Virus record (IMG/VR): IMGVR_UViG_3300008114_000046 | Span: 6,869 to 70,868 of that record | Length of the DNA stretch: 64,000 nt | DNA from: a virus | Taxonomy: Duplodnaviria; Caudoviricetes | Reading direction: 5' to 3' (one strand) | Part shown: one piece after another, positions 6,681 to 30,353 of the stretch | Layout of the letters: every line of letters starts with the position of its first letter | How positions within the stretch are numbered: the first letter of the stretch is position 1 | Made by a program: the position numbers and the translations under genes | Notes under the pieces: generated by a model | The model's database searches: none | Seen by the model: the letters and a program-made list of their open reading frames with translations, nothing else | What the model was told of the DNA's origin: nothing

Positions 6681-7895
6681 TTATTCCTCGATCGTCTTTG
6701 TCAAGTAATGGCCGGATGTATCTACATCAGGTGTTGTATTAGCTATTATATTTATAGGAGTTCCACCGGCAGATGTTGCAAGTTTAACAGTAGATCCGGA
6801 TGTTTGTACAATATAATAGTTGGTATTATTGGCTAATGGCGAAACAGCAACATTTGCGGTTGCGGTTGTGTATCTTACAATATCACCATTTGCAAATGGA
6901 TTTGATGTAATGTCCGTATCGATTGTTTTATTTGCCGTGCTTACATCACCGGCTGAGTTGAACTTCACTTCTTGACCAGTTGCAATTTCAGAAAGTTCAA
7001 CTGTAATAGAATCTTCCTCGACAACCAGTGCCGAACCAAAGAACTTAGTACCAGCAGTATGCATAACCTTCTTGAACATGTCTGCATAACGATCAACAGA
7101 GATCTTCGACAGAATCTCGTACGAGTATTCTTGATAGTAGTCACCGTCATGAATGTACATGTCTTCAGATAGGAAGCCCTTTGAACTTCTATAATATCCT
7201 TCACCAATGCCGTGTCCATCAACAACAATTTTAATAGACCCTGAACGCGCGCCGTCTGCTGAAGTGTATTGTAGAACATCACTATTCGAATAACCAACAC
7301 CAGAGTCTACAACCTGTAGAGATGTAATTTGGCCATTTGCTGTAATAACGTTAGCTTCAATCTGAGCATTTAAACCAATCGGATAGATAAGGTCTAAATC
7401 TTCAGTAACTCCTGTGATTTGAGCTTCTGCACCAGAAAATTCACCGAGCAGAAGTGAAACACTTGGAGGCGAACCCGGTCTAAATGTATTTTCAAAACTA
7501 AGTCTCTTTACGCGAACTGCAGTGGTATTGGCTGACTTGACAATACCCTTTGCAGTAGATGTAATTTGATACAAGCTTGCAGTAGATACATTTGCACTAA
7601 CATACGGATTTGAATATGAAAGCAGTGTATTTGATGATGTTACATTGATTGTGGATGTATTACCAGATACACGAACATAATCGCCAGTTGTATTTGAGAA
7701 GATTGATTGTACACTGGCATTCATTACTGGAGTTGTGCTTTGATACACGCGATCACCAGGTAGGAATCCAGGAATTGTAGAGAATGTATGTGATTCCAGT
7801 GAGGCCGCAGCTGCATTAATTGCTTTTACTGTTCCACCGCGTGCATCCGACAGTTTGAATCCAATCATTTGCATACTTGACAATGTTATGTCCAT
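6681..7895 (-). CDS. gp7: C-terminal part of gp7-like baseplate wedge initiator (out of frame with the N-terminal part)
   Basis: Contains GYYRSSKGFLSEDMYIHDGDYYQEYSYEI...KKVMHTAGTKFFG, the usual C-terminal motif of long gp7-like proteins. No convincing own start. Confidence 0.7.
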   Translation of the reverse strand: MDITLSSMQMIGFKLSDARGGTVKAINAAAASLESHTFSTIPGFLPGDRVYQSTTPVMNASVQSIFSNTTGDYVRVSGNTSTINVTSSNTLLSYSNPYVSANVSTASLYQITSTAKGIVKSANTTAVRVKRLSFENTFRPGSPPSVSLLLGEFSGAEAQITGVTEDLDLIYPIGLNAQIEANVITANGQITSLQVVDSGVGYSNSDVLQYTSADGARSGSIKIVVDGHGIGEGYYRSSKGFLSEDMYIHDGDYYQEYSYEILSKISVDRYADMFKKVMHTAGTKFFGSALVVEEDSITVELSEIATGQEVKFNSAGDVSTANKTIDTDITSNPFANGDIVRYTTATANVAVSPLANNTNYYIVQTSGSTVKLATSAGGTPINIIANTTPDVDTSGHYLTKTIEE

Positions 7896-28644: not shown

Positions 28645-29223
28645 TCATCCTCTATAAAAAATATGTGCACCAATCTTAGTTGTACGATCAAAGACTCTAC
28701 CCCAACGAGGACTTACGTAGTCGGCGTGGTAGAACTTTGCACCTTTAGTTACGTCACCGTAATTTCCTAGGTACACGTGTTCGGCGATTTCTTTTGCTTT
28801 TGCGAAAGCTACACCGTCACGAATTCGCTTTCCTCCCTCACACTTCCATGAAAATTGGCATACGCCTCGAGCTTTTTGGTTAATTACTCCGCATGGTGTT
28901 TTTGGGAATCTATCATCTTTGACGCGGTTTAACACGACATTGTTAACCGCAATCCTACCTTTGTAGGGTTCATGGCCAGCTTCGAAGTAGGTATTCTCGG
29001 CCATGCATTGGATTTGTTTTTTATCGTTTGCGCTCAGATAAACTGGCTTTTTTACGATAACTTCTTTTTCGATTACCTTGACTTCAGGTACCTTAACAAT
29101 CTTGACTTCTGGTTCCTTAGTTGGCATTGCAACAGCTGCACCTGCAGCAAGAGCAAGACCAAGGCAGAATCCTTCAGCCCAGCGTAGGTACGGGAAATCT
29201 TTTCTATTTTCGAAAAGTTTCAT
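28645..29223 (-). CDS. SleB/Hydrolase_2-family cell wall hydrolase with N-terminal membrane anchor or signal
   Basis: CMAENTYFEAGHEP...AVNNVVLNRV...FP...C...CQFSW...GAKFYHADYVSPRW...IGAHIFY. Confidence 0.88.
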   Translation of the reverse strand: MKLFENRKDFPYLRWAEGFCLGLALAAGAAVAMPTKEPEVKIVKVPEVKVIEKEVIVKKPVYLSANDKKQIQCMAENTYFEAGHEPYKGRIAVNNVVLNRVKDDRFPKTPCGVINQKARGVCQFSWKCEGGKRIRDGVAFAKAKEIAEHVYLGNYGDVTKGAKFYHADYVSPRWGRVFDRTTKIGAHIFYRG

Positions 29224-29239
29224 TTGTATCCTCTAATCT

Positions 29240-29490
29240 TAAATGACTTTGGCAAACAGAGACTACTGTGCAGGCATCTCAGCCTATAGTTTTTCTGTCG
29301 CTATGAGAAGATACAAAAAGAAATAACGAAGGTATCTTCCATCCATTTCCCTCTTACTGGAAATGCAAAATCATTATGGTTTCGTCGGTGGAATTATTGT
29401 GCATCTGAGATGTTAGATAATTCCGCTTTCTATAGCCCTAAGACTTGAAGCTTTGTAAGAGTCAATGGAGGTTCCAACCTCCGTTGCGAT
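29240..29490 (-). ncRNA. Candidate structured RNA / long 5' leader of the cell wall hydrolase gene
   Basis: ~270 nt with no substantial ORF, its own promoter, and at least five visible stems (see findings). Confidence 0.5.
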
Positions 29491-29494
29491 ATTT

Positions 29495-29525
29495 TATTTA
29501 TACACCATAGATCTATAAATGTCAA
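29495..29525 (-). promoter_or_regulatory. Composite sigma70-like plus T4 late promoter
   Basis: TTGACA-17 nt-TATAAATA on the - strand. Confidence 0.8.
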
Positions 29526-29559
29526 CCACTCGTGGTGTTTCTAGAACAACTCGTGGTAT

Positions 29560-29876
29560 GTGTGGGCCCGTTCTGTTGCTAGGTGGAACCCATCCCCCGA
29601 AAAATCATGCAGCTAGTGCAAGACCTTCATATGCAGTGTTATCGTTTGCATTTACGTTTAGTGGCACTTTGCCAGTCAATCAGTCTCGAACCTTCCTATT
29701 ACACGAAAATCGAATTCCAAGGTCACCCCCATCAAAGACACACTGCCGGCCGCAAAAGGCGATCTCGTTGGCTAAGCCCAGAACTTTCGTCCCTGTCTAA
29801 ACAATGTGTCTATGGTGGAGGTGCGGGGAGTCGAACCCCGGTCTTTCCGCCTTTACTGTTGATTGTCATCAACTGA
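29560..29876 (-). ncRNA. ssrA: Circularly permuted two-piece tmRNA (alphaproteobacterial type); outer ends approximate
   Basis: Acceptor piece ends ...GACCGGGGTTCGACTCCCCGCACCTCCACCA at 29813. Intervening segment 29812-29731. Coding piece starts GGGGGTGA at 29730. Tag reading frame 29649-29605 = ANDNTAYEGLALAA*, followed by GCAACAGAA. Confidence 0.93.
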
Positions 29877-29881
29877 TATTC

Positions 29882-29912
29882 TATTTATATACTAGATTGA
29901 TTTAAATGTCAA
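29882..29912 (-). promoter_or_regulatory. Composite sigma70-like plus T4 late promoter of the tmRNA
   Basis: TTGACA-17 nt-TATAAATA on the - strand, immediately before the acceptor piece. Confidence 0.8.
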
Positions 29913-29915
29913 CCA

Positions 29916-30353
29916 TTAATTGCACCAAGATTGCTTTGCGTCGCCATAATATTCACGAGCAAAACCATTCTTGATAAGCAGATCACGAAGGCTCATACCA
30001 TCAAGCAAGATATCGCCAAGAATACGGCCACCAAACTTGTCCCAATCGTATAGAACAACCTGGTGCTTCTTTGTCGCAGCAATTACGTCCTTTGTAAAGA
30101 CAGAAGCCTGCTCACCGCGCTTCTTTTCGCTTTCACATTTAGCACGGAAGCTTTTCTCTGGAGTGTCGACACCAAAGATACGAACACCGAGCTCAGGCTT
30201 GAGTGGTGCTGGAAGATATGGCGCAATAACAACAACTGTATCACCATCGACTGCGCGAACAATGGTAGTATCATAGGTAACACCAACTGGTGTCTTCTGA
30301 GCAATAGCTGGAGTGGCTAGCATTACAAGTGCTAGTGCAATAAACTTCTTCAT
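29916..30353 (-). CDS. Thermonuclease (SNase-like) with signal peptide
   Basis: RAVDGDTV...VRIFGVDTPE...DKFGGRILG...LLIKNGFAREY; N-terminus MKKFIALALVMLATPAIA. Confidence 0.88.
   Translation of the reverse strand: MKKFIALALVMLATPAIAQKTPVGVTYDTTIVRAVDGDTVVVIAPYLPAPLKPELGVRIFGVDTPEKSFRAKCESEKKRGEQASVFTKDVIAATKKHQVVLYDWDKFGGRILGDILLDGMSLRDLLIKNGFAREYYGDAKQSWCN

Follow-up and report, generated by a model that had tools for sequence, protein, structure and literature searches.

The 64,000-nucleotide (nt) stretch of viral DNA analysed here, hereafter the window, corresponds to positions 6,869 to 70,868 of IMG/VR record IMGVR_UViG_3300008114_000046 (Duplodnaviria; Caudoviricetes), a record of 70.9 kb which is estimated to be 40% complete. 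Between a permuted transfer-messenger RNA (tmRNA) gene and a gene for a Hydrolase_2 cell-wall hydrolase it contains a segment, positions 29224-29494, which is free of open reading frames (ORFs), and the question raised by this locus is what that segment encodes or controls. A first-pass annotation, made from the letters of the window, had regarded it as a highly structured RNA, either a new cis-acting regulator of the lytic enzyme or a stand-alone non-coding RNA (ncRNA). Shuffled controls, covariation and homologues showed that the structured RNA is real and conserved. It represents a genuine, previously uncatalogued structured RNA family which is locked to the phage cell-wall hydrolase gene. 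On balance, we favour the view that it is a new cis-acting leader, riboswitch-like or protein-bound, which controls translation of the hydrolase. Coordinates are those of the window and, unless stated otherwise, features lie on its minus strand.

Conserved RNA structure on the minus strand

The 271-nt stretch was folded on both strands and compared with 200 shuffled sequences. The predicted energies were -74.3 kcal/mol (z -3.88) for the minus strand and -78.9 kcal/mol (z -4.56) for the plus strand, and each was better than all of the shuffles. Since the folding energy was good on both strands it confirms the presence of structure and cannot be used to choose the strand.

Homologues were collected into successive alignments of 45, 62 (named A2) and 66 distinct sequences. 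In preparing the last of these, 182 copies were collapsed to 66 by merging exact duplicates, many contigs being present under two locus identifiers; a deletion variant (L004/L158), a coding false positive (L200), and L196 together with other loci which were cut by contig ends or contained N were left out, while the end coordinate of L055 was set by hand. Controls consisted of sliding the 3' partners of each helix by one to three columns, and of 500 shuffles. The model pairs were formed in 96.9% of 4043 cells across the 66 sequences, compared to 45-55% in the slid controls. Covariation in homologues upstream of the hydrolase, which the first-pass annotation had named as a check on its proposal, was plentiful: 25 pairs changed on both sides, in 194 cells, versus 6-12 pairs in 14-40 cells when the partners were slid. 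None of the 500 shuffles reached any of the five measures used, and the 62-sequence set gave results in agreement. RNAalifold had already returned helices P1 to P6, including a long-range helix, from the initial 45-sequence set. In an all-against-all search of alignment columns, the signals falling outside the model resembled phylogenetic correlation between two clades, and no pair was adopted from it.

Among the relatives, G.U combinations occupied 379 cells and A.C combinations 28 cells when the helices were read on the minus strand. This excess of G.U over A.C indicates that the structure is maintained at the RNA level and on the minus strand. The first-pass annotation had found the polarity of G-U wobbles to be mixed and had let the functional strand depend on the promoter; neither statement holds across the relatives, where the wobble asymmetry by itself settles the strand. 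The lengths of 506 of the 514 runs of insertion or deletion were not multiples of three, and therefore no reading frame is conserved. Likewise, no frame suited to a leader peptide or small protein gene was kept in both phase and length, the short frames differing between lineages.

Rfam 15 (4227 models) was searched in three ways. At gathering thresholds, two tmRNA models were the only matches in the whole window. With E values up to 10, nothing within 29224-29494 was matched in a 4-kb search, and in a search of 341 nt the only match was mir-423, on the other strand and with 18.8 bits against a threshold of 71, which was attributed to chance. The glnA and Downstream-peptide riboswitch models, assumed to be within the Rfam library, gave no match at E up to 10. 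The view that this RNA belongs to no known family was therefore borne out by the Rfam scan, and no description of the motif was found in a literature search conducted mostly at the level of abstracts.

Linkage to the hydrolase gene

When the hydrolase protein was used as the anchor of a search, 152 viral stretches were obtained and 80 of them retained. A non-coding stretch with 74-100% nucleotide identity was located directly 5' of the start codon in all 80. Searches with RNA-motif patterns were added to avoid the bias which protein anchoring introduces. The initial pattern recovered 107 stretches from viral contigs, and the hydrolase gene was directly downstream in 97 of the 102 new loci; the five loci without a visible hydrolase were at contig ends, with less than 190 nt of room. 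A second pattern, based on the 5' domain and also applied to viral contigs, recovered at least 118 stretches and 19 new loci, 18 of which were divergent members of the family; the remaining one, L200, proved to be a coding false positive. Nine divergent loci were translated, and in each of them the next gene again encoded an anchor-plus-hydrolase protein, with identity to that of the window falling as low as 41%. The hydrolase of L203 was visible for 23 amino acids (aa) only, owing to the end of the contig, and that of L188 was confirmed as Hydrolase_2. A third pattern recovered 71 stretches from metagenome contigs; 60 of these left room for 450 nt or more, and all 60 had the hydrolase downstream. 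As the viral and metagenome collections draw in part on common source projects, these counts are not independent. The leader RNA is single-copy in the window (nhmmer) and in five large related records.

Searches beyond these collections were negative. No true copy was found in 185,579 species-representative bacterial genomes using one strict pattern, which is weak evidence of absence; the two matches obtained, both in Aquimarina assemblies (L184:4916-4957 and L185:78-119), lie inside a conserved protein-coding region and were dismissed as chance. Among isolated phages, blastn with 1401 nt returned only a 34-nt match to tmRNA. The closest hydrolase homologues from cultured phages are at most 46% identical. 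In the two such phages which were inspected, RcXuper and DSS3_MAL1, a shorter hydrolase lacking the anchor is preceded by 17-80 nt and no such RNA; gaps of this size leave no room for the leader.

The surroundings of the RNA and hydrolase vary. Of 145 contexts, 136 have a gene for a gp33-like protein after the hydrolase, and all nine exceptions belong to the L188 clade, in which no tmRNA occurs within the 12.7-kb locus and no gp33 gene is found downstream. In L190 the upstream neighbour is a tRNA instead of a tmRNA. Loci of the L002 type share 99.6-100% identity with the window in the RNA and the hydrolase, but their tmRNA allele is 73% identical and lies approximately 530 nt from the leader, with a homing-endonuclease gene in between. 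Because the tmRNA and gp33 surroundings differ in these three groups, the conserved unit is the RNA plus the hydrolase, and not the tmRNA plus the RNA. The discrepancy between 73% identity in the tmRNA allele and 99.6-100% in leader and hydrolase suggests that recombination took place at the tmRNA/leader boundary in the L002-type loci. The possibility that the leader is a 3' extension of the tmRNA was rejected: the tmRNA models end at 29561, and the L188 and L190 clades have no adjoining tmRNA.

Several observations were made on these variant loci. In L188, the most divergent clade, the hydrolase is located among tRNA genes, and a tRNA-Ile gene (anticodon tat; L188:7816-7908) begins 25 nt past its stop codon. 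The homing-endonuclease-like gene encodes 182 aa on the opposite strand (L002:2092-2640 and L004:2258-2806, both minus) and was assigned on the basis of a match to phrog_314 (E 1.4e-10), with no Pfam match. L004 carries a deletion variant of the leader (L004:2807-3000) in which approximately 166 nt, comprising the late promoter box and P1 to P3, are gone from between two similar short repeats, so that the 3' domain alone precedes an intact hydrolase gene; it is known from a single contig and is either a natural mutant or an assembly error.

Helices, promoter and surroundings of the leader

Counted from the predicted transcript start up to the last base preceding the start codon, the whole leader RNA measures approximately 265 nt (29224-29488). 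It consists of a 5' domain formed by P1, P2 and P3, and a 3' domain which is a four-way junction closed by P4 and containing P5, P6 and the P7-P8 arm. The junction segment J1/2 begins with AUUGACUCUUAC, and J3/4 with ACCGACGAAA. The first-pass annotation had listed six pairings for this region, all of which are literally present in the window; five of these were supported by the comparison, in the case of P1 in part, and the sixth, an 8-bp long-range match, was not.

P1 (29467-29482) is a hairpin with a GGAGG/CCUCC core and a variable loop. It is paired in 98.8% of cells, and two of its five pairs covary, the core reading GGAAG/CUUCC in the L188 clade and GGGGG/CCCCC in L203. As originally drawn (29463-29486) this stem was longer; the 5-bp core is kept among relatives, and the outer three to four pairs are not. 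P2 (29428-29449; UUC/GAA plus AGUC/GGCU, with a variable loop) was proposed by RNAalifold and is 100% paired. It is essentially invariant, the only changes being U-A to U-G in 12 sequences, and the pairing is compatible with the data and unproven. P3 (29390-29424) is paired in 97.7% of cells, and all six of its pairs covary, with at least eight stem sequences, several of them carrying UUCG-type loops. In the window an additional 19 nt (29398-29416) are inserted at the tip of P3 and form a small stem within it. Three loci of another clade, L056, L065 and L066, have a comparable insertion, whose inner stem shows a compensatory change.

The long-range helix P4 closes the 3' domain by joining AAUGAUUUUG (29366-29375) to CAAAGUCAUU (29242-29251), the latter strand ending 18 nt before the AUG. 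The closing helix predicted at this place was upheld: its ten pairs are formed in 99.2% of cells (99-100%) and nearly all changes are compatible with wobble pairing, five pairs varying on one side only, always with A or G opposite U, and one compensatory change, U-A to C-G, occurring in L198. The hairpin P5 (29344-29365), also anticipated, has an invariant 8-nt loop, AGUAAGAG; it is 100% paired, and three of seven pairs covary, in 12, 2 and 7 sequences. P6 (29306-29340; GGAAGAUA/UAUCUUCU), annotated initially as 29307-29339, is paired in 94.7% of cells; its stem is nearly invariant, with two of eight pairs covarying, while its loop ranges from 7 to approximately 25 nt.

The P7-P8 arm (29252-29301) is a long irregular stem-loop ending, in the window, in the hexaloop UGAGAU. 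Changes on both sides were found in seven of eight pairs of P7a and in all four pairs of P8. The arm is shortened and the hexaloop absent in four divergent clades. P7b was misaligned by MAFFT (33.9% paired on A2); when the arm was folded alone, a single unbranched stem-loop built from different bases was obtained in 43 of 47 distinct sequences, and P7b is thus based on single-sequence folds rather than on a structure-guided alignment. The 8-bp match between 29275-29282 and 29405-29412, which had been proposed to form a pseudoknot, is not conserved: just 6 of 66 sequences have the P3-tip insertion in which 29405-29412 falls, and four clades lack the P8 hexaloop that supplies the other arm. Kissing of the P8 loop with the P2 loop or J1/2 was likewise rejected, since the third base of the P8 loop may be A, G or U with no change in the partner, and the loop is dispensable.

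A different pseudoknot, PK1, is a candidate. The sequence CUCUUAC in J1/2 (29455-29461), which is also complementary to the Shine-Dalgarno region, can pair with GUAAGAG of the P5 loop (29351-29357). The seven pairs are complementary in 66 of 66 sequences; six are invariant, and in the seventh an A-to-G change in nine sequences retains a G.U pair. PK1 probably joins J1/2 to the P5 loop, thereby tying the two domains together, a qualified statement because the two strands are nearly invariant and do not covary. In kissing-loop complexes a loop of 7-8 nt can pair fully, so that P5 and PK1 could coexist; they could equally be mutually exclusive alternatives.

A T4-type late promoter, with a TATAAATA box at 29495-29502, is located immediately upstream of the leader. 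TATAAAT is described as a T4-type late-promoter motif in PMC9004378, and for this reason the start of the transcript is placed some 6-7 nt downstream of the box, near 29488. The box reads TATAAATA in 57 of the 66 sequences and TAAATA in the other nine, always 22-32 nt before the J1/2 anchor. The arrangement resembles that of a T4-type late transcription unit, in which such a box lies near -10 and no -35 element is needed, and a gene for a gp33-like late coactivator is present just downstream. The window additionally contains TTGACA (29520-29525), a sigma-70-like -35 hexamer situated 17 nt upstream of TATAAA, and a dual promoter had been proposed. Both promoter sequences are indeed present and overlapping in the window; among relatives only the TATAAATA/TAAATA box is conserved throughout (66/66), a perfect TTGACA at this spacing being found in eight of 66, the lineage of the window included. 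The window as a whole contains seven copies of TATAAATA versus 3.75 expected, a modest enrichment, as 4 of 100 shuffles reached seven.

At the other end of the RNA, the Shine-Dalgarno sequence AGAGG (29230-29234) is found as such in 60 of 66 sequences, with another GAGG form in four and AGAGA in two. It begins approximately 7 nt past P4, and is separated from the AUG by 5-7 nt in 61 of the 62 sequences with a scored motif. The distance from the end of P4 to the AUG is 14-18 nt in all 66 and 17-18 nt in 61. A further candidate hairpin, P10 (29199-29217), lies within hydrolase codons 3-9, is paired in 85.9% of cells of A2, and may be part of a translation-initiation control region. In lineages with a different N-terminal peptide (e.g. 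L112, L172, L199) a hairpin is built here from other bases.

Contigs from RNA libraries of three studies span the junction of RNA and gene and are nearly identical to the window: X2 (29167-29454; two differences in 288 nt), X13 (29177-29356; two in 180 nt) and X1 (29077-29294; four in 218 nt). X4 covers part of the gene only, and the RNA-library contigs reach neither 29480-29533 nor the first 35 nt of the RNA, a gap which carries no weight for or against transcription there. X2, X13 and X1 are compatible with a single leader-plus-gene transcript, and this counts as weak support because such libraries can hold DNA and the contigs show neither the ends nor the strand of a transcript.

The genes around the leader are all on the minus strand. 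The upstream two-piece tmRNA was identified with RF01849 (alpha_tmRNA; 29561-29916, 76.9 bits), RF04321 (tmRNA_permuted; 29605-29874, 89.8 bits) and ARAGORN (29514-29908). It is of the alphaproteobacterial type, with the tag ANDNTAYEGLALAA and a TATAAATA box of its own at 29882-29889; the tag peptides of relatives differ (ANDNESIALAA, ANDNNAYGAFALAA, AANDNSPVEFALAA, ANDNDSFADIRLAA). Directly upstream of the tmRNA is a gene for a secreted staphylococcal-nuclease-like protein (29916-30353; PF00565, E 3.9e-10), which was found upstream in 114 of 134 related contexts. Between the end of the tmRNA and the leader promoter, a 9-nt sequence (on the minus strand, ACCACGAGT) is directly repeated at 29528-29536 and 29549-29557 with a spacing of 21 nt; one copy coincides with a breakpoint of the L004 deletion.

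The hydrolase gene (28645-29223) encodes 192 aa, with a hydrophobic N-terminal segment followed by a Hydrolase_2 (SleB-type) domain (PF07486, E 2.1e-24), and its product matches PHROG families annotated as endolysin. The leader-linked hydrolase is the sole Hydrolase_2 match in each of four related records, and no Phage_lysozyme (PF00959) match was obtained in these four records, all of which are incomplete. It is followed by the gp33-like late-transcription coactivator gene (PF16805, E 1.4e-16) and a gene for a gp59-like helicase loader. Based on the presence of these two genes the phage is T4-like; among cultured phages, the closest homologues of gp59 are from cyanophages (43-47% identity).

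Proposed function and alternative readings

That the fold ends right before the ribosome-binding site suggests that translation initiation is what it controls. As between the two roles originally offered, cis-acting regulator and stand-alone ncRNA, the former is favoured because of the covariation, the lack of an Rfam family, the linkage to the hydrolase and the end of the RNA 14-18 nt before the start codon. The segment would be transcribed from the T4-type late promoter as the ~265-nt 5' leader of the hydrolase mRNA, on the minus strand, and its folded body, adjoining the ribosome-binding site, would act in cis on initiation of hydrolase translation. Three pyrimidine tracts, CCUCC in the 3' strand of P1, CUCUUAC in J1/2 and UAUCUUCU in the 3' strand of P6, are complementary to the true Shine-Dalgarno sequence, and the internal purine partner of each resembles the Shine-Dalgarno region. 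In the native fold the tracts would be held by these internal partners and the ribosome-binding site would be free; a ligand, a protein or misfolding could free one of the tracts, which would then pair with the Shine-Dalgarno sequence and shut off translation. In its mode of action the leader is predicted to be closest to a riboswitch or to a translational operator bound by a protein. The kind of conserved, covarying, aptamer-like fold which characterizes riboswitches is found in this 5' leader. As for an expression platform, CUCUUAC complements both the P5 loop and the Shine-Dalgarno sequence, with no covariation and with permissive controls. PK1, the switch and a sensed signal are what we infer beyond the structure itself. 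A narrower proposal, which we put forward tentatively and consider possible rather than probable, is that of a new riboswitch class, whose large aptamer, with its pseudoknot, would respond late in infection to a host metabolite or to a signalling nucleotide and thereby determine whether the membrane-anchored hydrolase is translated.

A number of results weigh against control by such a switch. A small hairpin (P9) linking P4 to the ribosome site, formed by the 3' strand of P4 with bases before the Shine-Dalgarno sequence, was rejected, being 29.7% paired versus 57-63% in the slid controls; a similar hairpin can be formed by eye in some clades (L186, L190) and is not general. Pairing of CUCUUA with the Shine-Dalgarno region is possible in 90.5% of cells, with no change on both sides and with slid controls reaching 82%, and that of the P6 3' strand with the same region in 83.5%; none of the alternative pairings shows covariation. 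The anti-Shine-Dalgarno complementarity can be explained by the composition of pyrimidine versus purine tracts, and as it is indistinguishable from base composition these pairings were discarded as evidence. The mean unpaired probability of the Shine-Dalgarno sequence was 0.21 in nearest-neighbour ensembles, which cannot represent pseudoknots, and was again 0.21 with P4 blocked. The adjoining stable-RNA genes would fit a stand-alone RNA as well. Lastly, sequence identity is 0.749 for the leader and 0.756 for the coding sequence, the leader being higher in 32 of 64 comparisons; as the leader is overall no better conserved than the gene, the case for it depends upon covariation, invariant junctions and linkage.

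The absence of a covarying alternative pairing, and the fact that blocking P4 leaves the predicted accessibility of the ribosome site unchanged, would suit a passive structural leader, which protects the late hydrolase mRNA from nucleases or serves as a landing platform for ribosomes, with no sensing and no switch. Such a leader would show the same linkage and geometry as a cis-regulator. Protection or standby functions, however, rarely require invariant junction sequences, and in this RNA a multi-helix junction and the 7-nt complement between loop and strand stay identical even where hydrolase identity has fallen to 41%, so that a purely passive role seems doubtful. That the RNA might instead be a stable, trans-acting member of the tRNA/tmRNA cluster, cut out of the transcript or ending before the gene and sharing only the promoter, is suggested by its tmRNA or tRNA neighbours in every clade examined and by its being single-copy, compact and strongly structured. 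It is, however, never found apart from the hydrolase, it keeps a fixed gap of 14-18 nt to the AUG, and no terminator-like site, such as would also mark a transcription attenuator, was found on its strand between 28400 and 30500; the RNA-library contigs which cross the junction in three studies argue weakly in the same direction. We regard this stand-alone role as unlikely.

The strong conservation of the junction nucleotides and the multi-helix fold with its candidate pseudoknot would also suit a catalytic RNA, for instance a self-cleaving ribozyme which processes the transcript arriving from the upstream tmRNA gene. The RNA, however, has its own promoter and is present where the tmRNA is not upstream, and no Rfam ribozyme family was matched in the 341-nt search at E up to 10; catalysis is accordingly considered very improbable. 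Least credible of all is an explanation without RNA structure, by a DNA-level element (inverted repeats or a plus-strand terminator) or by a small or upstream reading frame. The plus strand does fold slightly better as a single sequence (z -4.56), P1 with its T-run scores as a plus-strand terminator-like site, and every sequence examined by eye has a short frame starting at an AUG past the P5 loop. Against these stand the asymmetry of G.U and A.C cells (379 versus 28), which fits minus-strand RNA only, the lack of any plus-strand gene ending here, and the 506 of 514 indel runs which would break any reading frame; the short frame itself runs to between 5 and 30 codons, shifts between lineages and has its AUG inside the covarying P5 stem.

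Several known systems resemble the cis-acting leader proposed here. Riboswitches of the c-di-AMP (ydaO) and c-di-GMP-I classes have been reported in front of genes for cell-wall hydrolases or for phage lysis; they share with it a structured 5' leader directly before a peptidoglycan hydrolase and, for c-di-GMP, the phage setting. Unlike them, the present leader is not matched by the Rfam models and has two domains, a four-way junction and a candidate loop-to-strand pseudoknot. In the late genes e (lysozyme) and soc of phage T4, mRNA secondary structure hides the ribosome-binding site, and the combination of a T4-type phage, a late promoter, a lytic enzyme and proposed control of translation initiation by RNA pairing is common to both cases. 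The e and soc structures, however, are simple hairpins whose effect depends on the promoter used, whereas the present RNA is a conserved fold of 265 nt wholly downstream of the late promoter. The tRNA region of T4 also encodes small stable RNAs of unknown function, which are likewise structured ncRNAs among stable-RNA genes of a T4-like phage; the leader differs from these in its strict association with a protein-coding gene, from which it keeps a constant distance. Finally, the glnA motif is several times smaller than the present ~265-nt RNA. It is nevertheless the closest analogue in genome position among T4-like aquatic myophages: a glutamine riboswitch follows the two-piece tmRNA in the OM43 phage Melnitz and in pelagimyophages (PMC9004378), so that in both cases a permuted tmRNA and then a structured RNA are found upstream of the late-transcription coactivator region. 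The analogy speaks in favour of a regulatory leader. The present RNA differs in being tied to a hydrolase gene, which is not placed at that locus in the available text of PMC9004378.

Strongly covarying leaders with invariant junctions have been the source of new riboswitch and ribozyme classes in the past. The RNA described here is large, common in viral metagenomes from aquatic sites, and strictly linked to the gene for a muralytic enzyme in T4-like phages. Even if passive, it would constitute a conserved RNA-plus-hydrolase module and a possible marker for an uncultured phage group. Should the RNA respond to a signal, these phages would encode a sensor which acts at the lysis or cell-wall step, a control point which is poorly understood outside model phages; and if the riboswitch proposal is correct, it is the physiological state of the host cell that would set the time of lysis or of wall remodelling.

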